A stretch of 64,000 bases of DNA from a virus (lineage: Duplodnaviria; Caudoviricetes). Of this stretch, positions 1,021 through 63,828 are shown piece after piece; position 1 is the stretch's first letter, and each line of letters starts with the position of its first letter. The position numbers and the translations under genes were made by a program. The DNA lies in IMG/VR virus record IMGVR_UViG_2974647559_000001, positions 1 through 64,000 of that record, one strand, 5' to 3'. A model generated the notes under the pieces. That model had not been told where the DNA came from. It was given only the letters and a program-made list of their open reading frames with translations, and did no database searches.

Positions 1021-1039
1021 GAGGGCTTTTTAGCCCTCA
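1021..1039 (-). terminator. Hairpin between nrdA and nrdB (weak terminator or processing site)
   Basis: GAGGGC-ttttta-GCCCTC overlapping the nrdA stop. Confidence 0.35.
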
Positions 1040-3882
1040 CAGCTAAGACACTCATTAAACTCAATTTTAGCACGTACCGGTACACTGTTCAATGGTTTGT
1101 CACCACCAGTCCCAAGATTTGCTCTTGTCGCAGGTTTACTACGGCAGTAGTAAAAGGTCTTAACACCACTCAACCAACCTTTAATGTGTATATCAACCAT
1201 CTCTTGTAATGTAATGTCGTTAGGTACAAAAATGTTCAAACTTTGACTTTGGCATACATACTTCTGTCGTGCTGCTGCCAGTTCTACAATCCAAGAAGGA
1301 TTTATTTCTGTCGCTGTCTTAAACACTTTCTTGGCTTCATTATCCAACCAATCTAAGTGCTGTACACTACCTTCGTTCACAATTATGTCTTTCCATACCT
1401 CTGGTGTATTCTTGCCATAAGCATCCAGAACTTTCTCAAGATATTTATTCTTGATTAAGAAGCTACCTGCCCTGCCTTGTGCATTAAACGCATTAGCTGC
1501 CCAAGGTTCTATGGATGGGCTAGTACCCACCATACTACTACTGCTTGCATTTGGTGCGATGGCCAATAAGTGGCTATTCCTCATACCACTACCGTAACAA
1601 TCGTCGCACTCCCCTCGCTCTTTCGCAAGTTGTTTACTAGCCTCTACAGCACGTTCCTTTATTGCGCCGTACAGCCTATGTGTCCATTGTATAGCAGAAT
1701 TAAACCCCCCTGTCTCAAAAGCAATATCTTTGCTTTGTAAGAAAGAGTGCCAACCCAATGTACCTAAACCTATTGCACGTTCTTTACTTGCAGAGTGTAC
1801 CGCACGTTTAAGGTGTGGTGGGGCTAGGCGGATAAAATACTCTAACACGTTATCCAGCAACCTCACCAAGTCTTGCACAATCGTAGTGTCTTTCCATTCC
1901 TCATACTTCTCTAAATTAATAGAAGATAAGCAACACACTGCTGTGCGTTTGTCTGTAGTCCTTAATGTAATTTCAGAACACTGCCCTGTTAGAATACCGT
2001 TGAATACTCCCATACCGCGTTTGCTCTCGGTGAAGCAGTATGTATCATCATAACGACCATCATCCACCACTTCAGTAATCTTAACAAACTGTGTACTTTC
2101 CCTGTTAGGTTTGTGGTCGGTGATTACTAACCGTTTAGGGTTAAAACCTAAAACATGTAAGTTGTTTATACCTGTCTGCCCTATAAGTAACCTGTAAGCT
2201 TGTTTACAGTAAAACATTCCCAACTCGCCGCTACCATCGTTCAAAGGCATCAATCGTTCACCAGCTTCAGTAGATGCTGTTACCTTTGAAGATACACCTA
2301 ACGTCTGTAACATCATTTGCACTTCTTGTAAGAAACCTTGCTCAACACTTCCAACCTGAATGGATTGGGTTTGGCCGTTCCTAGCAATTGTTCCGTCTGA
2401 ATCACACAAACCTTCAAACCACTTGATGCGACTCTCAACATCATAATCTGAACTAGGGACAAAGAACTTATCTTTTAGTAAGTGACTATGACCATACTCA
2501 CGATCTAAGTTGTCTTGCACAGACCAGTTGTGAAAAATGTCACCTAGATACCGCTTCAATTCGCGCTTATCCCCGTACAAATAAATACGTTTACCTTGTT
2601 TTGTTAAGCAACCATCGCCTGAGTAAAAACCGTTAGCATATGGATGTAGCAACGATTCATTCCCTTCAATAACAGGGAAGTCACACTTAATCAGCTTATC
2701 TCCTGCTTTCAATTCATTAGCACGTTTCTCAACAACCCATCGATTACCAGAAGTAGGGTGGCGACAAGCGATGTAAAACTTGTGGTAAGGTGTGCAAGTT
2801 AATTCAAAACCAGCATTGGTTTTAATACTTAGTAATTTCTGGTTCTCACCAGTTTTTACTACAACCGTATCACTCCACTCTTGACCATTCCAAACTGTAA
2901 CTTTTTCACCTTCTAGTTCAGATATAACCTCATAACCATTAGTAGTAAGAATTTTAGTCTCTGGAGCAACACATAAATTACTTTGACTCACACTGTATAG
3001 TGGGTGTGTAATCCAATTTGGAATATTTCGGTTAACTGTGTCTTTGAACATGATATAAGGTTCCCCTGTCTCATATCGAATGTTCATTAATTCTTCCCAC
3101 ACTTCTCTTGCATTTAGAAATCGACCTGTAGCTCCATGTTTGGGATCTATCAGTTCGTAATCTTCCCCGTTTATAACCGACATCATAAACTTATCTGTAA
3201 TGTTTACAGCATTGTTTAAATTAAAACACTTTTTATTACTATCACCACCTACGGGGTTACGCATTTGCATAAAAGCTGCAATTTCTGGGTGGTCAATATC
3301 TAAATATGCTGCCATACTACCTCTGCGAGTGGCAGTCTGCTTATAACTAAGGGTATCAGCATCGTAACCCCTCAAGTGTGCCATAACCCCTGTAGACTTC
3401 TCATCGGGAGATCGATTGGATGCGTACACACCGACACCACCACCCATCATGCTGAGCCAAGCGGCTTCACTACGAGCTTCAACTAGACCTTCTTTTGTAT
3501 CCGGTATATAACTTAAGAAACAACTTATCGGCATACCATCAGGTTCTACATTCTCTTGTAGCCACTCAGAAGCATATTCAAAATTCTCTTTATCAAAAGA
3601 AGGCCATTCCACATTTACGGCATTACTAAGCACTGGGCTTGCAAAAGTAAACCAACCCTTAGAAGCGTAGTCATAAATACGTTGTGCAAAATCATAATCA
3701 CCAAAAGAGAAACATGTTGCTGCCCTAGCGAAACCCTCTTGAGGGGAAGTTTCATGGGATTTCTTGTAGAAGCCTTTTCCTGTTAAAAGAGCAAGTCCTT
3801 GCTCTGGAATAAACTTGTCTCGGCTATAATCAATGATAATACCTAGATACTCTTGTACCGGACTATAATCTTTAGCTACCAA
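1030..3882 (-). CDS. nrdA: Ribonucleotide reductase class Ia alpha subunit, intein-containing precursor
   Basis: ATCF, SCFL, GGGVG, SNL/CSEI, AIAPNASSS, KTFYY and C-terminal CLSCEG motifs. Confidence 0.95.
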   Translation of the reverse strand: MVAKDYSPVQEYLGIIIDYSRDKFIPEQGLALLTGKGFYKKSHETSPQEGFARAATCFSFGDYDFAQRIYDYASKGWFTFASPVLSNAVNVEWPSFDKENFEYASEWLQENVEPDGMPISCFLSYIPDTKEGLVEARSEAAWLSMMGGGVGVYASNRSPDEKSTGVMAHLRGYDADTLSYKQTATRRGSMAAYLDIDHPEIAAFMQMRNPVGGDSNKKCFNLNNAVNITDKFMMSVINGEDYELIDPKHGATGRFLNAREVWEELMNIRYETGEPYIMFKDTVNRNIPNWITHPLYSVSQSNLCVAPETKILTTNGYEVISELEGEKVTVWNGQEWSDTVVVKTGENQKLLSIKTNAGFELTCTPYHKFYIACRHPTSGNRWVVEKRANELKAGDKLIKCDFPVIEGNESLLHPYANGFYSGDGCLTKQGKRIYLYGDKRELKRYLGDIFHNWSVQDNLDREYGHSHLLKDKFFVPSSDYDVESRIKWFEGLCDSDGTIARNGQTQSIQVGSVEQGFLQEVQMMLQTLGVSSKVTASTEAGERLMPLNDGSGELGMFYCKQAYRLLIGQTGINNLHVLGFNPKRLVITDHKPNRESTQFVKITEVVDDGRYDDTYCFTESKRGMGVFNGILTGQCSEITLRTTDKRTAVCCLSSINLEKYEEWKDTTIVQDLVRLLDNVLEYFIRLAPPHLKRAVHSASKERAIGLGTLGWHSFLQSKDIAFETGGFNSAIQWTHRLYGAIKERAVEASKQLAKERGECDDCYGSGMRNSHLLAIAPNASSSSMVGTSPSIEPWAANAFNAQGRAGSFLIKNKYLEKVLDAYGKNTPEVWKDIIVNEGSVQHLDWLDNEAKKVFKTATEINPSWIVELAAARQKYVCQSQSLNIFVPNDITLQEMVDIHIKGWLSGVKTFYYCRSKPATRANLGTGGDKPLNSVPVRAKIEFNECLSCEG
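1981..2973 (-). mobile_element. Intein (331 aa) with LAGLIDADG homing endonuclease in NrdA
   Basis: SNL|CVAPETKIL...GVFNGILTGQ|CSEI; LAGLIDADG-like GFYSGDG and GLCDSDG. Confidence 0.93.
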
Positions 3883-4912: not shown

Positions 4913-5049
4913 TTATTCTCCTTTACTACAAATCATAAGCGGGAACATATATTTTAACATATTCCCTTCTCCAATACAATATCTAAACTTTTATTCTTTA
5001 AATGTAGCAATAAACTCTTTTAAGAATTGTACATTCTTACTACCAATTC

Positions 5050-5256
5050 CTACTCCTTTTCTTTCAAGATACTTTTCAAATTTTCAACACAACACTCATC
5101 TGGATAAAACTGACCTGTAATGGTAATCCCACCTTTCAAGGTGAAAGACATTTCCATCGAGATTCGTTCCTCTATGGTGGGGTGTTCATCCGATTGAAAA
5201 CCAACCAAATCAGAGCCACCTACCGATAATTTAACTTTGTTTGGGTCATAATTCAT
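5050..5256 (-). CDS. Small protein whose N-terminus resembles the tail tube protein
   Basis: YDPNKVKLSVGGSDLVGFQSD vs tail tube YDPKKVSLSIGGVNPTGYAPD (11/21 identical). Confidence 0.6.
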   Translation of the reverse strand: MNYDPNKVKLSVGGSDLVGFQSDEHPTIEERISMEMSFTLKGGITITGQFYPDECCVENLKSILKEKE

Positions 5257-5259
5257 TCC

Positions 5260-5508
5260 CTACTCCTTAATCAACTCTTTAAACAAATCTAACCAGAAAA
5301 CCTTATTCTTACAACCCACCTCAACCAACCTAATGTTCTCTGTAGTGATTATTGTGGTCGGTAAACTGCGTATGCGATTCTGTTGTGTCAACTCTGGTTG
5401 TGCATCAATATCAATTATATCGTAATCAATATTAATTTCATTAAATATTTTCTTCAATGTATCACAATTACTGCAAAAACTTGCAGAGTAAAGTTCAACT
5501 TTCATCAT
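5260..5508 (-). CDS. Glutaredoxin/NrdH-like redoxin
   Basis: CSNC motif, RSLPT cis-Pro loop, 82 aa. Confidence 0.85.
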   Translation of the reverse strand: MMKVELYSASFCSNCDTLKKIFNEINIDYDIIDIDAQPELTQQNRIRSLPTTIITTENIRLVEVGCKNKVFWLDLFKELIKE

Positions 5509-6077
5509 TTACCTCCAATAAATCCACTTAATTCTGGTTCTCGGTAAGTGCGGGGGTTCTTCATTATCTTACCATTTCCATCCTTGAACACAATCCACTC
5601 ACCATGACGTTGCCAACCAACCCCTTTGTAACGTCCTTGAGCTTCAATCTCTTTGCAGATAGCGTTTAAATCTTCCCATTCGTGGTCTGACAAATCGCCT
5701 ACACCAGCATAATAGTATTTTGATTCGTTTGATTGTGCTACTTCTTTTAATGCGCCAAATATATCAATACCTGCCATTTTAGCCATACCAACCAAAGTCA
5801 CTATAGAATCTGCGATTCCGTCCGCTAATAGTGTCTTATTCACACATTCATTAAATGCTTCGTTCGTTTCTTCATCAGAAGTGTTATTTGCATCTCGTAT
5901 TAGCTCGGATTTTGCAACAAGTAATGTCTTAAATAATTCACTCTCCTTGCCACCAATAGCTTCAATAACCTCAGACCATTCCTCCAAGTTGTAAGCTGTC
6001 TGCAAGTAGAAGTTCTTAGCTGTGGGGTTAGGGGTTGCAACATCAAACCAATTTTCAATACGTTTGATTGTGTCCAT
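5505..6077 (-). CDS. MazG/PRA-PH-like NTP pyrophosphohydrolase
   Basis: LEEWSE...LADGIADSIVT...EVAQSNESK and DGNGKIMK motifs. Confidence 0.8.
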   Translation of the reverse strand: MDTIKRIENWFDVATPNPTAKNFYLQTAYNLEEWSEVIEAIGGKESELFKTLLVAKSELIRDANNTSDEETNEAFNECVNKTLLADGIADSIVTLVGMAKMAGIDIFGALKEVAQSNESKYYYAGVGDLSDHEWEDLNAICKEIEAQGRYKGVGWQRHGEWIVFKDGNGKIMKNPRTYREPELSGFIGGK

Positions 6078-6091
6078 TTATTTCTCCTTAT

Positions 6092-6235
6092 TTATCTGCC
6101 TTGTAGCATCTTGATAACATCATCTTTTTCAGTAATAATCATATTCAGGTCACGACACAAATCATTCAGCTTGGCAATCTCATCTTCAAGTTCTTCAATA
6201 TAAGTTAGTTTAGCTTGTGTATAGAGTTCTGTCAT
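6092..6235 (-). CDS. Small coiled-coil hypothetical protein (47 aa, not in ORF track)
   Basis: MTELYTQAKLTYIEELEDE...; follows a sigma70 promoter and purine-rich RBS. Confidence 0.6.
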   Translation of the reverse strand: MTELYTQAKLTYIEELEDEIAKLNDLCRDLNMIITEKDDVIKMLQGR

Positions 6236-6268
6236 AATCGTTTACCCTTTCTTTTGTTTGGTATACAA

Positions 6269-6297
6269 ATAGTAGACTTCCCTGTCTGTGCTGTCAA
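6269..6297 (-). promoter_or_regulatory. Sigma70-type promoter
   Basis: TTGACA-17-TACTAT on minus strand. Confidence 0.8.
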
Positions 6298-6314
6298 TAA
6301 CTTTTTAAGCTATT

Positions 6315-6944
6315 TTAAACCTTAGTCCAATCTTTATCAGGGGCATACATCTCACGTAAGCGAGAAGCAACACGTTCGTCAGTTTGTAGGTCTGCTAACA
6401 AACAAGCATACGTGTGTTTTTTAGTTTGCCAAGCAAGATGAGCTTCTAGCTCTGTTGGGAATAACCCTACACGTCTACTGCCACCGAAAGGGTTAGAGCA
6501 TTGAGCTAAATAAGGGTTTTTCTTACTCCTAGGTTCACAACTAACCCCTATCATATAGTCACCCCTCTTATTAATGCTATCTATAATAAAATTGTTAACC
6601 TTTCTAGGTACAAATACTACAGTGTCAGGTGAATAATGTTTGTTACCAACAGATAAAAAGTCCTTATCTGGTTCACAATTTTGCCAATCCTTGTTATGTT
6701 GAGAATCAACCCATTTAATAAAATTAGATAAATACCTCCAATCTTCTGTTACAGTACAACCTTTATAAGTAGGGTTCCTAGCTTGTTTCTTAGGACACAA
6801 GCATCTTTCAAGAATACCTATCCACTTTTGATAGTAAGGACACCTCCACACTACTTTCTGTTTACCATTCACTACTTCAGTTCTATAAACATCATATTCA
6901 GCGTCATTCCTACCCACCCCGTATACTAAACCTTTACGTGCCAT
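6315..6944 (-). CDS. HNH-like free-standing homing endonuclease, paralogue 1
   Basis: YxxWxxxLxRC...PTYKGCTV...WRYLSNF...DKD...YSPDTVVFVP..VN; three more copies in window. Confidence 0.75.
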   Translation of the reverse strand: MARKGLVYGVGRNDAEYDVYRTEVVNGKQKVVWRCPYYQKWIGILERCLCPKKQARNPTYKGCTVTEDWRYLSNFIKWVDSQHNKDWQNCEPDKDFLSVGNKHYSPDTVVFVPRKVNNFIIDSINKRGDYMIGVSCEPRSKKNPYLAQCSNPFGGSRRVGLFPTELEAHLAWQTKKHTYACLLADLQTDERVASRLREMYAPDKDWTKV

Positions 6945-7950
6945 ACCTCTCCTTTAAATATTCCAAGCTAACAAACATAGGGTTGAAGCTGCCATCCTTG
7001 ACATTATGCTGAACCACGATACCACGCCAATGATGATTACCTTGATAACCTTTGTAACCCTCATCATGTTCATAGTAAGCACCTGCAATAATAGCCCACT
7101 GTTGTTTACCCGATGATGGTAAGAAGCGCGTAGCTGTGTCTAAGCACTGCTTATGTCCCATGCAAAAACTTTCACCAACATTCTTAAGGATGTTTAACGC
7201 AGTGCCGCCATATGGTTTACCTGTCATTGGGTTTGCCATGAAGTGTACATAGGCTACGCCGTTTATAACTACTGGTTGCAAATAGTCATAAACTTCCCAA
7301 CCCATCTCTTTATATTTTAAACTATCATAACTCAGAAAGCCATACAATTCTGGATTAGCATTAACATGTCGCTCAATACGCTGCTCATGATTACCAAGGG
7401 TAATAACCATTTTAGGTTTGTACAACACCTTACCATGCTCTACCATTTGTTTTCGTTGTAAGTCGTGCAAAGGTTTGAGTAGTCGGTTCATACCCTCGAT
7501 TGCAGACTCAATGTCTTTGTGGACACGCTTCCCTTCTGCACTACGTTGACCTTTATCATAACTAGATAATGATTCCATGTCAGCATGATCTCCAATGTGG
7601 ACAATCACTTCTGGTTGTTTATCTACAATATATTGACCTAACCAATCCATATATCCTAAGTCAATGTCTGGTTTACATTGAGTGTCAGGTATCATTAAAT
7701 GTGTGACATTCTCGCCTACAGATTTAGCAGTCTGTATGGTGTAATAAGAAACCCCATCTGTAGGCAATACCTTAGCCCCAAGTACCTTATCTAAATCACT
7801 CACAGGGGCTTCCGCAGCGTTTAAATAACGGTTATATGTGTCGTTGACTGTTGATTTGCCGACACTCAATACTTTTGCAATATGACGACTAGAAAAACCT
7901 TCTTGCTTAAGTCGAATCATTTCTAACTGTGTTTCTGTGAAATCACTCAT
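6934..7950 (-). CDS. Calcineurin-like metallophosphoesterase with N-terminal HTH
   Basis: IPDTQ, IGDHAD, LGNHE, GHKQ motifs; SSRHIAKVLSVGKSTV HTH. Confidence 0.8.
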   Translation of the reverse strand: MSDFTETQLEMIRLKQEGFSSRHIAKVLSVGKSTVNDTYNRYLNAAEAPVSDLDKVLGAKVLPTDGVSYYTIQTAKSVGENVTHLMIPDTQCKPDIDLGYMDWLGQYIVDKQPEVIVHIGDHADMESLSSYDKGQRSAEGKRVHKDIESAIEGMNRLLKPLHDLQRKQMVEHGKVLYKPKMVITLGNHEQRIERHVNANPELYGFLSYDSLKYKEMGWEVYDYLQPVVINGVAYVHFMANPMTGKPYGGTALNILKNVGESFCMGHKQCLDTATRFLPSSGKQQWAIIAGAYYEHDEGYKGYQGNHHWRGIVVQHNVKDGSFNPMFVSLEYLKERYGT

Positions 7951-8273
7951 TCTTCATCTCCATCTAATTCTCTAACAATATCATCAAAATCACTATCAGT
8001 GAGTAGTCCAGACATGATATCCCGTTCAATATCAGATATTGTCTCACCGTATTCTTTGATAAACTCAACTAAATCTTTAGCTGATGCACCAGAGCTATCA
8101 CTGAAATTCTTAATCAGATAATAAGCTTGCATTACAGCGAAATATCTAGCTTGCTCACTGAGAAATACAGAACTATTGGGTGGGAATGATTTACCATAAA
8201 TCAATTCACCTTGACCTGTCTCTAATAATTGTTGATATGATGTGATGTTTAAATGGTATACAGGACTCATCAT
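7947..8273 (-). CDS. Hypothetical protein
   Basis: 108-aa ORF with 4-bp overlaps to both neighbours. Confidence 0.7.
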   Translation of the reverse strand: MMSPVYHLNITSYQQLLETGQGELIYGKSFPPNSSVFLSEQARYFAVMQAYYLIKNFSDSSGASAKDLVEFIKEYGETISDIERDIMSGLLTDSDFDDIVRELDGDEE

Positions 8274-8584
8274 ACAGGTCTAGCTCTAAATATCAGTTTT
8301 ACAGTGGGACAATCTTCTGTAAATTGTATTGAAAATGGTTGTAATTCTAACCTAATATTCTCAAATTTAGCAGCGGCGCAAGCCAGATTAGTCGATACAA
8401 TATACCTACTGCCTGCAATCATTTTTACCTTTTCAAAAATTGGGGAGTTGCATAAAAGATTCAATACAAATTGTACTTCTCCACCGTATCTAGAATGAAA
8501 CTCAAGCTTAGTATCTGGTGCCCAACCTGTAACAAATTCATTGTTAATTGTGATACTTTGTTCTTTGATGTCATATAACTTCAT
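8270..8584 (-). CDS. Tail-tube-like paralogue lacking the central hairpin
   Basis: 14/28 ungapped identities to the tail tube N-terminus (TGWAPDTKLEF vs TGYAPDTKIVF); also LLCNS/LLHNS and ELQP/ETQP. Confidence 0.7.
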   Translation of the reverse strand: MKLYDIKEQSITINNEFVTGWAPDTKLEFHSRYGGEVQFVLNLLCNSPIFEKVKMIAGSRYIVSTNLACAAAKFENIRLELQPFSIQFTEDCPTVKLIFRARPV

Positions 8585-8861
8585 TTATTTTCTCCTTGTT
8601 GTTTAAAATATTCGACAAGCTGCTCTCTACGCCCTTTGGAGTTGGATCTGAAGGTGACTGGTTTGATTTACACAACAACAATTCGTGTGTTATTTGGGCA
8701 AACTCACTCACCAATTCCCCATGTGCTTGTTGTAGTGTCATTTCACCAAACCTTAACCTAGCTAATACATGACCAATATTGTCTAACTGCGAACCACTAT
8801 AGAAAGGTTCTGAAATGCAACCACAACTAATAGTCTTGTCTTTTGGATTATAAATAATCAT
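8571..8861 (-). CDS. Hypothetical protein
   Basis: 96-aa ORF in operon, overlaps neighbours. Confidence 0.65.
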   Translation of the reverse strand: MIIYNPKDKTISCGCISEPFYSGSQLDNIGHVLARLRFGEMTLQQAHGELVSEFAQITHELLLCKSNQSPSDPTPKGVESSLSNILNNKEKINEVI

Positions 8862-9463
8862 TTGTTTTCCTCTTGAATTAGTCTAATGAAACATTGCCGC
8901 CTGTCTGTTTCGTTTCCAATGTCTTTGACTTTAAAACCTTTTGATAGTAAGTATTTCTTCTGCCTCGCTGCAACACCTTTACCTTTCCCACCAACATTAT
9001 TCTCCAGTTTAATAGCTTTCTTAATCAACACAGCTTCATCCCAAGATAAGTTATTATCTTCTAGGTAGGTCTTAACCTTGTGGTCTTCAACACAAAGAAT
9101 CTGCAATCCTGTGATCGGAACATTCAACATGTTTTCACAGTAGTTTTCAAAATCAGATAACTTGGTAAAACTGTGACCACCAGATATATGGTCTACATTG
9201 ATATCGTCCAACTTGAACAACTCCCCACATATTGCACACTTCCATAACCACTTAGTTCTGGTTGCTGGGTTCATGTCTGGTATTCGTGTCTGTTCTAAGA
9301 AAGCAAGTTTTTGTGGTGACGACATCCATGTTTTTCTCAAAGATGAACGAATCATATCTAATAACTTTTTCTCTTTGATTCTGCCATCAGAGTCTAAGTG
9401 TTTTAGGTGTTTCTCTAACTCAGCTTCCTTTTTATCTATATCAGCTTTAGATGGTACTGTCAT
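8858..9463 (-). CDS. HNH endonuclease with zinc-binding motif
   Basis: CAIC...VDHI...LQILCVEDHKVKT. Confidence 0.75.
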   Translation of the reverse strand: MTVPSKADIDKKEAELEKHLKHLDSDGRIKEKKLLDMIRSSLRKTWMSSPQKLAFLEQTRIPDMNPATRTKWLWKCAICGELFKLDDINVDHISGGHSFTKLSDFENYCENMLNVPITGLQILCVEDHKVKTYLEDNNLSWDEAVLIKKAIKLENNVGGKGKGVAARQKKYLLSKGFKVKDIGNETDRRQCFIRLIQEENK

Positions 9464-13507: not shown

Positions 13508-14185
13508 CTATTTATTTGTCCAATCTGTTTCGAGATTATACATCTCTCGTAAACGTTTTGCAACTCTTTCGTCCGGCTGCTCATCTGCAAGTTTTAAAGC
13601 GTGTTCATACTTCTCAGCCTTCCAACACAAATGAGCATCTAATTGATTAGGAAACCTACCTAAATAATCCCTCTTTCCCGTAAAAGGGTTTTTACAAATA
13701 GCCTGATAGATTTCTTTGTCCCTACTTTTATCGAGTGTGGTGCCAAGTAAAGATTGACCACGGCTTTTTGGTTTGCTGTTGATAAAACTGTTCAAACTTT
13801 TTGGGATGTACACGCACTTAGTTGGGGCATACTCTCTGTTTCCTTCAAATAAGAAATCCTTATCTAACTGACACTTTTGCCAATCTTTATTGGGTTGAGA
13901 ATCCACCCACCTAATAAAATCAGAAAAATATCTCCATTCTTCAGAAACAGAACAACCTTTGTATGTTGGGTAAATGTTTTGGTAATTAACACAAAAACAT
14001 CTTGTCAACATGTTCATCCAATCTGAATAATAAGGACAAATCCAAACATTTTTCTTTTTGCCGTCTATAGTACGACTTTTAGTCACAAAACCACTAGCGT
14101 CATTTATTGCCCATCCATATATCAGATTTTCCAAATTACCTCCTAACTTCCAAATTACCATCCTTGGTTTAGAATGATACACCAA
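13508..14185 (-). CDS. HNH-like free-standing homing endonuclease, paralogue 2 (start uncertain)
   Basis: CPYYSDW..RC..PTYKGCSV..WRYFSDF..LDKD; sits directly downstream of the polymerase gene. Confidence 0.75.
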   Translation of the reverse strand: MVYHSKPRMVIWKLGGNLENLIYGWAINDASGFVTKSRTIDGKKKNVWICPYYSDWMNMLTRCFCVNYQNIYPTYKGCSVSEEWRYFSDFIRWVDSQPNKDWQKCQLDKDFLFEGNREYAPTKCVYIPKSLNSFINSKPKSRGQSLLGTTLDKSRDKEIYQAICKNPFTGKRDYLGRFPNQLDAHLCWKAEKYEHALKLADEQPDERVAKRLREMYNLETDWTNK

Positions 14186-19755: not shown

Positions 19756-21246
19756 TTAACTCCAAAGTCGATCACGGATAGTTGAGAATGTTTCTTCTTT
19801 GTAGAAGTTACCACTAGAGTAAACTACCTCCAGTAAACCTTCTTGCTCTTGTTCAAACGATTGTTGGTCGTGTAAAATAAAATTGTTACCTTCTTTTTCG
19901 ACACGTAATAGACCTTTGGCAGATTTCTTCATACCATCATCAGTTTTAGGGTCTTTAGATAGCTCATACAACTTACCGTCAACAATAGCAGCAGTGGCTT
20001 TCACGGCCATACCTGCACTATCTCGACTTAAATATTGACTAGTAAAACTTCCAACACCAAATACCACGTTTGTGGAGGCAAAACCTTTGCTTGCTAACCG
20101 TTTGAATATCTCTTTGGCACGTTCCAACGTAATAGAGTCACCATAAATTAAACCCACACGTTCATGTAAATGTTTAAAACCAAGTTCATTCTCAGTGCCA
20201 CCAAACACTTCCCATAAACACTCAACAGCACCTTTATATTCCGGTGAACCTTTTGGTGCGTCAATATCACCACACAACACTTTAACTGGGCAACCAGAGT
20301 CGGGGCGGAATACAACTTTAGCCAAACCAATTTCATTAACCTGCCGGTTAAGAATATCGTCTTTAAGTTCTGTAGCAAACTCAGTGACTACTCGGAAGAA
20401 GTCTAGTGTATCAGCAATAATAGATACAATACCAGTTGGGTAATCCTGTGTAATCCATTTACGATATGTTTCTAATTCACCATTCACCGCGATTCCAGTG
20501 GAAGCTAAACTATGTTCACTCGCGGGGACTGATGTAGCAATAAACTCTTTTGTAATATCAACACCATAGTACTTTTCCAAATATGGCAGTGCTGGAATTG
20601 TATCAGTACCATTACTTGACAGCAAGAACCCTGCTGCACAAGCTGCCGCATCTTCCCATCCACTCATGCCACGAAATTCAAAACCATGTATCTGGAACTG
20701 TGTACCATCAGTCGAACCCGTCGTCTTGGTTGCCCAATCATTAGTAAGCTTCCTGTACTCACGTATAATTGTAGCCACTGTAGCAGGCTTCCACAACTGT
20801 GCAGACAAGTATGTCTCTAGGTAATTAGTCAACCAAGCAAACCGATTGTCCGTGTTGCGAATAGTAAAGAATGGCACTTTAATATCTACGCGACTACCTT
20901 CTGGTAGAGACTTGACCTGAATAGGTAAATAGCCTAAATCATGTAGCTCTGCAAAGTGGTCCATTCCTACAGCACCAACCCCAAGGTAAGCATCAAATAG
21001 ACGCTTAGTTTCAGCTAGCACTTCTTCTTTATTGCGACTGAAAAACTCCTTATCCCATAGGTTATGCATTTGTTTCAGTACAGCTTGCAGACCAAACCAG
21101 ACAATCTTATCATCAAAATCTTCGTGGTTTACTGGTAAATATTTACTAGAACGTGGTGTCATGTTCGAGTAAATGCTTTCAGTACCTTCGGTCATAAAAC
21201 CTTTGTGACTTAGTTTGTAGCTGTCTGTTAAAAATAATGGGTTCAT
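19756..21246 (-). CDS. NAMPT-family protein; probable Namat of NARP1
   Basis: TDSYKLSH, HGFEFRG, PASEHS, FRPDSG, LIYGDSIT, KKSAKG. Confidence 0.9.
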   Translation of the reverse strand: MNPLFLTDSYKLSHKGFMTEGTESIYSNMTPRSSKYLPVNHEDFDDKIVWFGLQAVLKQMHNLWDKEFFSRNKEEVLAETKRLFDAYLGVGAVGMDHFAELHDLGYLPIQVKSLPEGSRVDIKVPFFTIRNTDNRFAWLTNYLETYLSAQLWKPATVATIIREYRKLTNDWATKTTGSTDGTQFQIHGFEFRGMSGWEDAAACAAGFLLSSNGTDTIPALPYLEKYYGVDITKEFIATSVPASEHSLASTGIAVNGELETYRKWITQDYPTGIVSIIADTLDFFRVVTEFATELKDDILNRQVNEIGLAKVVFRPDSGCPVKVLCGDIDAPKGSPEYKGAVECLWEVFGGTENELGFKHLHERVGLIYGDSITLERAKEIFKRLASKGFASTNVVFGVGSFTSQYLSRDSAGMAVKATAAIVDGKLYELSKDPKTDDGMKKSAKGLLRVEKEGNNFILHDQQSFEQEQEGLLEVVYSSGNFYKEETFSTIRDRLWS

Positions 21247-21255
21247 ATATTCTCC

Positions 21256-22062
21256 TTATTTACCTAAATTAAAATTCAACACATCAGTTTGGTTTACATA
21301 ATTACCAACTGTGTGCCAACAATAGATATTATCTATCTTGTCTTTGAAGATGTCAAGCCCTTTTGCTGCAATTAAATGTGTTACGTATAAATCAACAATA
21401 GCTCCTAGCGACTTAAGCTTCTCTGCTAGCGGAATGAAGGTGCCGCCCGCATCCATTAAATCATCTACAATCAACAACTTACAACCAGTTAAGTCAACAT
21501 CAGTGTCTAGTGCTGTCTCAACAATACGTCCCGTAGAAACATCCCGCACCTTAGTTGCAGTGATTACTGGCATACCTAACTCATATATCTTCTTTAATGC
21601 ACCTTTATCTGGTGCAACCACATAGTCATACTGCTTTAAATTATGTACCACTTCACTAATTGCAATATACTGAGGCATATCATTTAAACCACAATAGTCT
21701 ACCCAATCTGGATTATGCGAATCTACAGTTCGTACTTCATCAAACCCTTGAGTAATAATCTCAAGGAACACCTCTAGTGGTAGAGGATTGCCGTGTTCAA
21801 ACACCCTGTCTGCTCTAGCAAAAGGACAGTACGGAATGTTTAAACCAACCTTATATTCTGTGCTGCTATTAGCATAACCTAGCGCACTCCTAACCAGCAG
21901 AACTTCCATCAAGATATCTTTTACTGGTGTAATTGGGTCAACTGTAACCCAAGCAGTTTTAAATTGTGGTGGGCAATCAATTAGTTTACAAGTATTGGCA
22001 CCATCACTAAATTCTAACCAATCTATTTTGATTGGTTTGTTGTCAATTGTTAAACGAATCAT
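21256..22062 (-). CDS. PRPP-synthetase-family protein; probable Adps of NARP1
   Basis: FSDG, PYCPFARADR, VAPDKGA, IVDDLMDAGGT. Confidence 0.88.
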   Translation of the reverse strand: MIRLTIDNKPIKIDWLEFSDGANTCKLIDCPPQFKTAWVTVDPITPVKDILMEVLLVRSALGYANSSTEYKVGLNIPYCPFARADRVFEHGNPLPLEVFLEIITQGFDEVRTVDSHNPDWVDYCGLNDMPQYIAISEVVHNLKQYDYVVAPDKGALKKIYELGMPVITATKVRDVSTGRIVETALDTDVDLTGCKLLIVDDLMDAGGTFIPLAEKLKSLGAIVDLYVTHLIAAKGLDIFKDKIDNIYCWHTVGNYVNQTDVLNFNLGK

Positions 22063-22566
22063 TTAACCCTCCAACTTATAAATAACAACATCTTTAACAT
22101 AAGGAACTACCAGATGCTCAATCAATTCTAACACAATATTCCAATCTCCACCAGCACGATCTGACGCCATTTTGTATGGGACACCAATTGTAACATTAAG
22201 TGGATAGATAGGCCATTCTTCATCCAATTCAAACTGTATTACACGGTAACAATGAGATAATGCAGAAGCTATAGCACCATAACTTACATAGCGCTTTTTA
22301 TTATACCCATAAAACTCTTGCCCTATCAGATTGAGAACTCTCCCACCTTCGATACAATCACCTAAGAAATGCTTAAGTGTCCTGCGTTCTTGTAACATAT
22401 CATAACGTCTACGGTAAGCTAAATAGGCATCTGGAATACGAGCCTTAATCTCCTTAGCTACACCACTTCCCATAACACCTTGTGCGTTACAACAATGTGC
22501 AATAAAGTCCACCTCACCATCAAGCAAAGCATCTACAACATTTCCAGTTCTGTGAATAATACCCAT
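22063..22566 (-). CDS. Macrodomain (ADP-ribose binding/hydrolase) protein
   Basis: AHCCNAQGVMGSGVAKEIK, PYKMASDRAGGDW; ATG at 22566 after GGAG. Confidence 0.85.
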   Translation of the reverse strand: MGIIHRTGNVVDALLDGEVDFIAHCCNAQGVMGSGVAKEIKARIPDAYLAYRRRYDMLQERRTLKHFLGDCIEGGRVLNLIGQEFYGYNKKRYVSYGAIASALSHCYRVIQFELDEEWPIYPLNVTIGVPYKMASDRAGGDWNIVLELIEHLVVPYVKDVVIYKLEG

Positions 22567-22577
22567 ATCACCCTCCA

Positions 22578-22683
22578 ATTTAACCTATCTACAAGCGCCT
22601 ACAATCAATTATACAGTCATACCCTAACCAACGTACTACTTACCCCATAAAACCTCTCATAGACGCTCTACGGTTGTTTAAAT
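22578..22683. repeat. ~106-bp intergenic pseudo-palindrome E1
   Basis: ATTTAAC...CAACGTAC (offset 51)...GTTTAAAT. Confidence 0.65.
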
Positions 22684-60804: not shown

Positions 60805-61881
60805 ATGTCAGTTGATATTACAGAAAGAGTAGATGTTGTCGTATCTCTTGGTACACAACCTATTTCTACAGCTTCTTTCGATTCAGCTATGTTTTTAGCT
60901 GATACAGAAAGCGCCGGTTGGCCCGTAGCCTTTACAGAAGATTATCGTGTATTCACTTCACTGAAATCTGTAGCTGATGCAGGTTTTGCTGAAACAACCT
61001 CAACATATAAATTTGCTGCATTAGTGTTTGGTGGCAACTTTGCTGTTAAATCACTTTATGTAGTTCGTTACACTACAGACGTAGGCGCTCCTGTAACACC
61101 TACAGCAGCATTTAACACTCAGCTTACTGTAGATGACACACCTTACTATGTAGCGTGTGATGTGCACACTGAAGCCGTAATTACACCATTGGTTGCTGCT
61201 GCTGAAGCTGCTTATCGTATGGTTGTAGTTAGTTCACAGGAAGCAGGTATTCTGGTTCCAGCCACTACTACAGATTTAGGTAGTGTACTACAGTCTGCTG
61301 CCTATGACCACGTATTCACATTATACCACCCATCTGCTGATACAACATTTGCTGAAGGCGGTGTAATTGGTGCAATGGCTGCTATCCCTGCTGGTGTATC
61401 TACACTAGAAGATAAGACCATGACTGGTGTTACATCTTATTCTATTGATGGCACAGCAACTACCTCAGTTAAAGATAAGAACGTAGGTTACTACTCCCCA
61501 ATTGCAGGTGTTAAGTCACTATTTAATTCTAGAGTAGCTTCTGGTCAATTCTTCGACACTATTGTATTCAGTGATTGGTTACGTGCACGTATTGGTGAAG
61601 CAGTATATGGATTGATGAAGCGTCGTTCAGACGCAGGTTTAAAAGTCAGCTACGACGAGAATGGCACGAGCTTAATCCGTTCAACTATCTTCGGTGTAAT
61701 CCAAGTGGGTTTAGCTAACGGCGCAATTAGTCCAGATATCTACCCTGTAGTACGTACACCATCTCGTGAAGAAGTGAGTGAAGCAGACCGCACTGGTCGT
61801 GTATTACCAGACGTAGTGGTTGAAGTGTTATATAGCAACGCAGTACATAACGTTCTTGTACGTGCATACGTAAGCGTATAA
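60805..61881 (+). CDS. Tail sheath protein (DUF3383-like)
   Basis: GQFFDTIVFSDWL, KVSYDENG, NAVHNV. Confidence 0.82.
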   Translation: MSVDITERVDVVVSLGTQPISTASFDSAMFLADTESAGWPVAFTEDYRVFTSLKSVADAGFAETTSTYKFAALVFGGNFAVKSLYVVRYTTDVGAPVTPTAAFNTQLTVDDTPYYVACDVHTEAVITPLVAAAEAAYRMVVVSSQEAGILVPATTTDLGSVLQSAAYDHVFTLYHPSADTTFAEGGVIGAMAAIPAGVSTLEDKTMTGVTSYSIDGTATTSVKDKNVGYYSPIAGVKSLFNSRVASGQFFDTIVFSDWLRARIGEAVYGLMKRRSDAGLKVSYDENGTSLIRSTIFGVIQVGLANGAISPDIYPVVRTPSREEVSEADRTGRVLPDVVVEVLYSNAVHNVLVRAYVSV

Positions 61882-61892
61882 GGAGATAATAA

Positions 61893-62354
61893 ATGACAAT
61901 TAAAGCATACGATCCTAAGAAAGTCTCGTTATCTATTGGGGGTGTGAACCCAACAGGTTATGCACCAGATACAAAGATTGTCTTTAGTCGAGCTAACCCT
62001 GTCTCAACTACAACCGTAGGAGTGGACGGAGATATATCGGTAAATGAAGATAATCGTAAGAACGGCACAATGACTATTAGTTTATTACACAACTCATCTT
62101 TCAATGATGTAATAACTTCTTGGTTGCTGACCAAACCAACAGGGTATCCATTCCTACCCTTCGAGTTCAATGACCCGTCAGGTAGTGCCACAACTTCTAG
62201 GTGTTGGGTGGAAACACAGCCTGACTATAGCGTGGGGCAAGAGACTGGTACTCTTGATTGGGTATTTGGTGTAGAAGATACCACACTGAAACCAAACCAA
62301 ACTGTAGCGCGATTAGATAAACTAAAACAGTTTACTGGTGCAGTGTTAGTATAA
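61893..62354 (+). CDS. Tail tube protein (DUF3277-like)
   Basis: YDPKKV..IGG, VGVDG, ISLLHNS; follows sheath. Confidence 0.82.
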   Translation: MTIKAYDPKKVSLSIGGVNPTGYAPDTKIVFSRANPVSTTTVGVDGDISVNEDNRKNGTMTISLLHNSSFNDVITSWLLTKPTGYPFLPFEFNDPSGSATTSRCWVETQPDYSVGQETGTLDWVFGVEDTTLKPNQTVARLDKLKQFTGAVLV

Positions 62355-63133: not shown

Positions 63134-63772
63134 TTAAAGGTATCTGGTTCTCAAAGCTTCAGCTACTCTTGGATCATCTTGTAAATCGGCAAGCTTTAAA
63201 GCGTGTTCATGTTTCTTAGCCTTCCAAGCTAAATGAGCCTCTAATTCTGTGGGAAACAGACTAATATATTCTGTTTTATTAGTAAAAGGATTACTACATT
63301 TAGATGCGTAAGGGTTCTCTTTACTAGCACCTGAGTGAAAACAAACACCTATTAATAAAGAACCTCTTGAACGTTTTGAATCTAACATGAAGGTGTTTAT
63401 TTTACAAGAGATGTATACACAAGTCTCAGGCGAGTATAATTTACCATTCCCCAGTAAATCTTTATCTAATTGACTATTTTTCCAATCTCTATTAGGCTGA
63501 GAATCAACCCATTTAATAAAATTCGATAAGTATTGCCACTCTTTGAATATTTCACAACCAACATAACTGGAACAGCTACCTGAAGGGTCATTACCAAAAC
63601 ACCTGCGGATCATACTCCGCCAATCAGCATAGTATGGGCAAGTCCACACCAGTTTACTTTTACCTTGAATTGTTACAGTTACTCCAGTGTTATAATTAAC
63701 GTCCACAACACCCCACCCATGTATGGTTGGTTTCAATGATTCCCAATCTTCTCGTCTAATATTTTTAGTCAC
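63134..63772 (-). CDS. HNH-like homing endonuclease, paralogue 4, inverted in the tail operon
   Basis: GTG start after AGGAG; KNIRREDWESL shared with paralogue 3. Confidence 0.75.
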   Translation of the reverse strand: MTKNIRREDWESLKPTIHGWGVVDVNYNTGVTVTIQGKSKLVWTCPYYADWRSMIRRCFGNDPSGSCSSYVGCEIFKEWQYLSNFIKWVDSQPNRDWKNSQLDKDLLGNGKLYSPETCVYISCKINTFMLDSKRSRGSLLIGVCFHSGASKENPYASKCSNPFTNKTEYISLFPTELEAHLAWKAKKHEHALKLADLQDDPRVAEALRTRYL

Positions 63773-63799
63773 ATTACTTCTCCTGTAGGTTAAAAAGTA

Positions 63800-63828
63800 A
63801 AGGTAGCACATAATGAAACAGTTTGCAA
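63800..63828 (-). promoter_or_regulatory. Sigma70-type promoter for the inverted HNH
   Basis: TTGCAA-17-TACCTT. Confidence 0.6.

Follow-up and report, generated by a model that had tools for sequence, protein, structure and literature searches.

A stretch of 64,000 nucleotides from a phage of the Caudoviricetes (IMG/VR record IMGVR_UViG_2974647559_000001, positions 1 to 64,000; hereafter the window) encodes, among replication and nucleotide-metabolism genes, a protein of 104 residues that we call ORF104 (ORF, open reading frame). ORF104 is remotely paralogous to the tail tube protein of this phage, a tube of the phiTE type. It has the N-terminal extension and the first strands of the tube (YDPxK ... 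G(F/Y)xxDxK). It lacks the C-terminal alpha-2 arm and also the extended hairpin between strands 2 and 5, which is missing from the whole short family. Judged by profile comparison, ORF104 belongs with the uncharacterised family PHROG 13903, a placement that is new here. The argument rests on the following features.

8270..8584, minus strand: ORF104, short tail-tube paralogue of 104 residues, N-terminal arm kept, hairpin and C-terminal arm gone
61893..62354, plus strand: tail tube protein, phiTE type (PF11681, PHROG 280), 153 residues, assigned by family and structure matches
61986..62066, plus strand: extended beta-hairpin segment of the tube (codons 32-58), with about 19-21 residues that have no counterpart in ORF104
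60805..61881, plus strand: tail sheath (PHROG 205, E 1e-69; DUF3383), which marks the real tail module
5050..5256, minus strand: ORF68, 68 residues, between glutaredoxin and ThyX, its first 23-30 residues or so matching the tube N-terminus

Homology of ORF104 to the tail tube

The tube gene comes right after the sheath gene. Its product matched PHROG 280 (E 2e-32), the solved phiTE tube (PDB 9cb9 and 9cuy, E 4e-38, in a gapless alignment) and phi92 gp131 (E 3e-35). An AlphaFold2 (AF2) model of the tube, with a predicted local distance difference test score (pLDDT) of 75, matched the phiTE tube with a Foldseek probability of 1.00. The core of the phiTE tube is an eight-stranded beta-sandwich plus helix alpha-1, and much of its inter-ring interface comes from the extended hairpin between strands 2 and 5 (PMC11972413). 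An N-terminal extension of 18 residues wraps over a hairpin contributed by a subunit of the adjacent ring; the alpha-2 arm, at the C-terminus, wraps the in-ring neighbour and binds the sheath (PMC11972413). By way of the gapless alignment, the YDPxKV motif lies within this 18-residue extension.

BLASTP aligned ORF104 with the tube over 29 residues without gaps (14 identities, pair E 2e-6). When the tube was compared with each of the 697 ORFs that six-frame translation of the complete 84.6-kb genome gives, only ORF104 (E 8.7e-4) and ORF68 (E 2e-3) rose above noise, the next ORF scoring 1.8, and each of the two short proteins was the reciprocal best match of the tube. A profile of the ORF104 family compared with 12 tube homologues (hhalign) gave a probability of 96% and E 3.8e-9. 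It placed ORF104 residues 2-53 on tube residues 4-74, with a gap of 21 residues at tube 32-52 and with LLCNS opposite LLHNS. The wider comparison, of seven short proteins with 15 tubes, was colinear from ORF104 1-102 to tube 3-128 at E 1e-11 (reversed-tube control, E 0.047). About 19 residues were missing within tube 37-58 and ELQP stood opposite ETQP; the alignment ended at tube 128-130 of 153, leaving the last 25 residues of the tube unmatched.

These results bear out two claims of the sequence-only reading that preceded this work, namely that ORF104 is a tail-tube paralogue and that it lies 53 kb from the tail genes, in the replication and nucleotide-metabolism arm. The segment around VGVDG that it described as deleted is indeed the extended beta-hairpin: the gap falls at tube 32-58, the segment is a low-pLDDT loop (residues 35-51) in the AF2 tube model, and the phiTE structure has its hairpin there (PMC11972413). 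Calling that hairpin the oligomerisation element was right as regards the stacking of rings, the main role of the hairpin, which does not form the hexamer (PMC11972413). The full-length alignment it drew held for the secure N-terminus, the colinearity and the deletion of about 19 residues; the LLxNS and E(L/T)QP pairings came back in each alignment but lack significance when taken alone.

Two results bear on how far the relationship extends along the protein. The 32 N-terminal residues of ORF104 alone gave E 9e-17 with the tube profile, whereas the part after residue 32 alone gave E 0.014 and a probability of 3%, short of significance. The AF2 model of ORF104, built from a shallow alignment of four sequences, had a pLDDT of 45 and is unusable; a structural search with it returned generic beta-sandwiches only (Z<5). 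Sequence comparison thus makes the homology secure for the first 32 residues only. Because the residues after 32 lack significance, relatedness over the whole length rests on two things, the weak colinear alignment and a model (pLDDT 0.57) of the exact ORF104 protein in the ESM Atlas. The best neighbour of that model was the PF11681 Phage_Tube_PhiTE cluster, with a template modelling (TM) score of 0.73 across ORF104 residues 5-103, and its remaining neighbours were mostly tube or tube-like (Phage_tail_2, TTP_11/12, gpD/VgrG).

The phiTE-type family (PF11681 Phage_Tube_PhiTE, also KPP10_Orf10; PHROG 280; 9cb9, 9cuy; phi92 gp131) is the closest tube family. ORF104 shares with it the N-terminal arm with the YDPxK motif, the G(F/Y)xxDxK strand, a weak colinear similarity through the sandwich and the nearest neighbour of its predicted fold. 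It differs in that the extended hairpin and the alpha-2 arm are missing and the alpha-1 region is shortened, and in being 104 residues long, 53 kb away and below the Pfam and PHROG 280 models, where the tube has 153 residues and lies beside the sheath gene. ORF104 had no Pfam match at E<=1 and no PHROG 280 match, its homologue P0002 reached E 0.2 with PHROG 280 over 28 residues, and a PDB sequence search with the ORF104 family gave no match. ORF104 is not beside the sheath gene and stands outside the tail module. By model match, hairpin, C-terminal arm and module, it falls outside the tube family proper.

We also considered a recent gene conversion between the ORF104 and tube genes. Six of seven codons are identical in TGxAPDTK, where about three are expected by chance; they are mostly preferred codons, and the overall nucleotide identity of the two genes is 54%. 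Such a conversion is not established.

Relatives of ORF104 and PHROG 13903

Searched exhaustively with a hidden Markov model (HMM), 1.84 billion cluster representatives yielded just two real relatives of ORF104; two long repeat proteins that also came up (P0004 and P0005) were spurious. One relative, P0002, is 82% identical and lies on an 85-kb contig. The other, P0003, has 107 residues and is 32% identical; its gene stands just before an orthologue (64%) of ORF108, the gene that follows ORF104 in the window, and upstream of glutaredoxin and ThyX. The word-index searches contributed just one more copy, P0001, which has 104 residues and is 98% identical to ORF104. A tblastn search with ORF104 and P0003 against 50,697 phage records gave nothing at E<=1; the only match at E<=10 to a gene called "virion structural protein", in Sinorhizobium phage phiM12, was on the opposite strand and is due to chance. 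An IMG/VR pattern scan and a megablast of the ORF104 region gave no match.

Weak matches of ORF68 to Klebsiella phages led to PHROG 13903. ORF104 matched this family at E 2.2e-5 (residues 4-100 on profile positions 15-115 of 118), and P0003 and P0002 matched it over their whole length (E 4.3e-6 and 3.9e-4). In a genome-wide search, PHROG 13903 picked ORF104 at E 1.3e-6. These scores are modest, which makes ORF104 a distant member or a sister family. A member from Klebsiella phage KNP2, gp125 (115 residues, no cysteine), belongs to the family at E 5e-54. With gp125 as tblastn query, full-length copies were found in 47 phage records, all of Seunavirus or Mydovirus-type Vequintavirinae, including PVP-SE1 (gene 140), GAP31 (GAP31_139), SSE121, 4MG and FENT2. 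The gene order was nrdA-nrdB-X-grx, where X is the family member, in the four records that we inspected (KNP2, PVP-SE1, GAP31 and FENT2). In these carriers the gene is tens of kilobases from the tube gene, e.g., about 49 kb in KNP2.

The gene is patchily distributed. The phiTE and CR3-type phages have no full-length copy, their tblastn matches covering the tube N-terminus only, and a second match in phAPEC8 was not N-terminal and looks like chance. Among the other phages checked, it was absent from the rV5-type MaxTheCat, from Felix O1 (FO1a), from one Vibrio phage, and from AM24 and PAK_P1, which are the closest isolates when judged by the phosphoesterase gene. In the PVP-SE1 record, nrdB and grx are annotated with rV5 homologues and gene 140 with none. 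Given these absences from rV5-type phages, Felix O1, AM24 and PAK_P1, the gene looks accessory. A short tube paralogue thus appears, from these comparisons, to be an accessory gene that recurs in the DNA-metabolism operons of two distant lineages with a phiTE-type tube.

ORF104 resembles the members of PHROG 13903, e.g., PVP-SE1 gene 140 (Salmonella), KNP2 gp125 (Klebsiella), GAP31_139 (Cronobacter) and FENT2 CDS0182 (Enterobacter), in its size range (105-118 residues), its HMM match over the whole length, its tube-like N-terminus, the SP motif, the C-terminal strands and its location, remote from the tube gene, in an operon for DNA or nucleotide metabolism. It differs from them in that identity is only 18-20%, and in that the members stand exactly between nrdB and grx whereas ORF104 does not, lying about 2.8 kb from grx. 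The members come from enterobacterial Vequintavirinae, while ORF104 is in an aquatic or marine phage of about 85 kb.

The concentration of the signal at the N-terminus allows another origin, in which only the first 30 residues or so come from a tube and the rest is an unrelated small domain; its function would then be unconnected with tails, perhaps that of an accessory factor of ribonucleotide reductase (RNR), glutaredoxin or replication. All of the statistical signal lies within residues 1-32, the wider-family profile aligns 32 columns only at the default setting, ORF68 has only the N-terminal piece, and the placement of the PHROG 13903 gene between nrdB and grx is tight, as seen in four inspected records of the 47. 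Yet what remains of the alignment keeps its colinearity, with LLxNS and E(L/T)QP paired as before, and tube-fold families match the Atlas model from residue 5 to residue 103. The N-terminal strands belong to the core of a beta-sandwich and by themselves would not fold; cofactor and catalytic motifs are lacking, and gp125 has no cysteine. We consider such a chimera unlikely.

ORF104 could also be a decaying duplicate without function, given that it is short, divergent and lineage-restricted, with only two real relatives among the cluster representatives. Its reading frame is intact in all copies and the ratio of non-synonymous to synonymous substitution rates (dN/dS) is 0.35 relative to its 82% orthologue P0002. 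Its position is kept at an identity of 32%, and the related family is kept in 47 phage records. Decay is scarcely credible as an explanation, and the substitution pattern indicates that ORF104 is a real, functional gene under purifying selection.

Gene neighbourhood and ORF68

ORF104 lies in the same leftward arm as the DNA polymerase and primase-helicase genes. It is flanked on one side by an exonuclease gene and an HNH gene, and on the other by phosphoesterase, glutaredoxin, ThyX and RNR genes. The following genes are also of interest here.

8571..8861, minus strand: ORF96, 96 residues, upstream neighbour of ORF104, not conserved in relatives
7947..8273, minus strand: ORF108, 108 residues with an acidic C-terminus, downstream neighbour of ORF104, conserved
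5260..5508, minus strand: glutaredoxin-like gene (Pfam Glutaredoxin on an identical product)
19756-22578: operon of NAMPT-like, PRS-like and phosphatase-like genes

The gene is packed into the leftward operon: its start overlaps ORF96 by 14 nucleotides and its stop overlaps the start of ORF108 (ATGA). It is preceded by a ribosome-binding site, AAGGAG, which closely resembles that of the tube gene. Promoter-like sites at ORF104 were no commoner than in shuffled sequences, and a separate promoter is not supported. ORF108 had no family match. It is 64% identical to the neighbour of P0003 on contig L008, a relative whose ORF104 reaches only 32%, and 69% identical to its counterpart on contig L001, and forms a conserved partner of ORF104.

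Four small RNA-seq libraries from one organism (2020) contain contigs of 11-42 kb that are 99.7% identical to the window over positions 7941-9463, i.e., over ORF108, ORF104, ORF96 and the HNH gene; in them, 2390 other bases replace 5047-7941. Contigs from these four runs cover the region and cannot show transcription or its timing. Their near-identity suggests that a close relative with expression data may exist in culture or enrichment.

ORF68 aligned with the tube at 11 identities in 21 residues (BLASTP, E 3e-6). Its N-terminus matched the N-termini of PHROG 13903 and PHROG 280, both at E 0.017, and covered only the N-terminal third of the PHROG 13903 model. The ribosome-binding site of ORF68 is strong, and a terminator-like hairpin (4966-4941) comes after the gene. 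ORF68 is letter-identical in 14 contigs from several samples, always in the order Grx-ORF68-ThyX. Glutaredoxin is thus an anchor shared between lineages, since it adjoins ORF68 here and the PHROG 13903 gene in the Seunavirus and Mydovirus phages.

The ORF68 site is occupied by a homing endonuclease in the 82% relative. There (L001:13042-14002), a 236-residue endonuclease-like gene ends in LDLFKELIKE, which is the C-terminus of this phage's glutaredoxin, and the glutaredoxin of L001 itself carries a different tail. Such a pattern looks like what an insertion into grx, at its 3' end, would leave behind. Elsewhere in the arm, the phosphoesterase gene (338 residues) and an adjoining homing-endonuclease-like gene (209 residues), together 6315-7950 on the minus strand, are letter-identical to L001:10613-12269. 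Beyond this block identity falls to 69% (ORF108) and 82% (ORF104), a mosaic that fits endonuclease-driven co-conversion or a recent exchange.

The window has three paralogous endonuclease-like genes, all on the minus strand (6315-6944, 13508-14185 and 63134-63811). The distance downstream is 0.8 kb from the tube gene for one of them and 1.3 kb from ORF104 for another. An intein with a LAGLIDADG domain, identified by Pfam on an identical product in other contigs, is present in the RNR large subunit (950 residues, 1030-3882, minus strand).

Outside this group, Aeromonas phage gene 2L372D_111 (L038:2847-3170, minus strand) encodes a hypothetical protein of 107 residues, among small genes and 15 kb from the tube gene. 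It has an ORF68-like motif (10 of 29 residues identical, pairwise E 5e-6, profile E 1.6e-3), and BLASTP gave no alignment between it and its own tube. Tentatively, this may be a third lineage with a tube-N-terminus look-alike.

Possible functions of ORF104

The hairpin links rings, and the alpha-2 arm makes the lateral and sheath contacts. Having lost both, ORF104 should be soluble and unable to stack or to hold the sheath, and it is predicted to be absent from virions; the earlier description of a non-polymerising protein was a fair one. The part that the tube, ORF104, ORF68 and PHROG 13903 have in common is exactly the N-terminal arm plus strands 1-2, which suggests a common binding partner. 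We tentatively propose that ORF104 binds or caps unassembled tube subunits, a reading that we hold to be possible rather than probable. The retained clasp, i.e., the YDPxK arm and the first strands, would bind the exposed hairpin of free tube subunits, and ORF104 would act as a holdase or cap that keeps tube monomers from aggregating. As a possible by-product, these monomers might be hidden from defences that sense monomeric tube. The accessory distribution and a place among middle-type genes belong to this design as well. ORF104 would be made alongside the DNA-metabolism genes, its early timing being suggested by gene order alone.

Several observations weigh against this proposal. The N-terminal motif is only loosely kept in P0003 (NGYDCGGK, against TGYAPDTK in the tube). 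ORF104 and P0002 share 13-14 of 29 residues with their own tube and 9-10 with other tubes, but the enterobacterial proteins show no such preference, and we do not claim that the short proteins track the tube of their own phage. A loose motif and the lack of clear tracking weaken the case for a co-evolving tube-binding interface. Any holdase role must be dispensable, since phages with the same type of tube build tails without the gene. Finally, the relatives carry the name "virion structural protein" in PHROG and RefSeq (e.g., NC_016071.1, 98468-98815).

That name would suit a minor virion or tail-assembly component, such as an extra tube-like ring or an assembly factor. Tube-fold paralogues (the tube initiator, the tube-like domains of the hub, the head-completion protein) are normal tail parts. 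They are duplicated sandwiches with altered arms, like ORF104, and the tube initiator, too, receives hairpins from the ring that follows. Unlike ORF104, which is minimal, accessory and encoded with replication genes, these paralogues of the tail module are larger, universal in their lineages and seen in virions. The gene is outside the tail module in every carrier inspected and missing from close relatives with the same tail. The solved phiTE and phi92 virions are complete without such a protein, though both phages lack the gene. As to the name, the original submitters of the PVP-SE1, GAP31 and KB57 records wrote "hypothetical protein", so the later label looks like a homology transfer from the tube-like N-terminus, and a literature search for virion proteomics of Seunavirus or Mydovirus gave no proteomic basis for it. 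A virion role is quite unlikely.

A protein that keeps one tube-tube contact and has lost the others also has the design of a chain terminator. As an accessory gene, it might be a dominant-negative tube fragment that poisons the tails of co-infecting relatives, tailocins or host Hcp tubes. Against this, the phage's own tube would be poisoned too, since ORF104 is if anything closest to it, and the literature search found no precedent. We regard such a weapon as very unlikely.

The sequence-only reading saw ORF104 as an immune decoy, i.e., a soluble tube mimic that would occupy a host sensor of unassembled tube and leave it inactive, at a time when the real tube has yet to be made. It cited the NADase DSR2 (NAD, nicotinamide adenine dinucleotide) and its inhibitor DSAD1. 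The monomeric form of the tube specifically switches on DSR2, and does so through the conserved sandwich domain (PMC10981675). DSAD1, the SPbeta inhibitor of DSR2, binds the open C-terminal domain of DSR2 and blocks tube binding allosterically (PMC10981675). The trigger was correctly named, but DSAD1 is no tube mimic. If ORF104 were a decoy, it would resemble DSAD1 in being a small phage protein acting at the tube-sensing step; it would differ in that DSAD1 is described as an allosteric blocker and not as an imitation of the tube (PMC10981675).

Several features are what a decoy would show. ORF104 resembles a tube protein, should not polymerise and is encoded at a distance from the late genes, tube monomers are the proven trigger of DSR2 (PMC10981675), and two separate tube-N-terminus look-alikes are found in one genome. 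The patchy accessory spread and the variable sites near homing endonucleases are typical of counter-defence genes. The phage also has the NAMPT-like and PRS-like NAD operon on which the earlier argument drew; the operon is real, but says only that NAD depletion or NADase defences matter to the phage. On the other side, a monomeric mimic that keeps the DSR2-activating tube core could trigger instead of block: since the sensor responds to tube monomers, a soluble mimic in monomeric form could set off a sensor of this kind as easily as silence it. DSAD1 is the only known anti-DSR2 protein and does not act by mimicry, and the conserved N-terminal arm is a tube-tube contact and no known sensor epitope. 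Our literature search found no paper on tube-mimic decoys or on counter-defence by tube mimicry. We hold the decoy interpretation to be plausible but unsupported, and on balance doubtful; we slightly prefer the binding or masking of free tube subunits.

In a broader form, ORF104, ORF68 and PHROG 13903 would be a conserved class of proteins that imitate or cap free tube subunits against defences that sense tube monomers, an idea that is attractive and, in our view, rather improbable as it stands. What can be said with more assurance is that a single odd ORF is now linked to a family with culturable members, in Salmonella phage PVP-SE1 and in Klebsiella Mydovirus phages, and that the label carried by PHROG 13903 is a probable database error. 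Phage structural proteins are now known as alarm signals for bacterial immunity, free tube monomers activating DSR2. Cut-down copies of the tube that lie in replication operons and are dispensable for tails are an obvious candidate for managing this signal, be it by hiding the monomer, by competing for the sensor or by controlling the timing of tube assembly. If the broader form held, it would be the first counter-defence built on a mimic of the phage's own structural trigger, and one that emerged or was retained in no fewer than two distant lineages of myoviruses.

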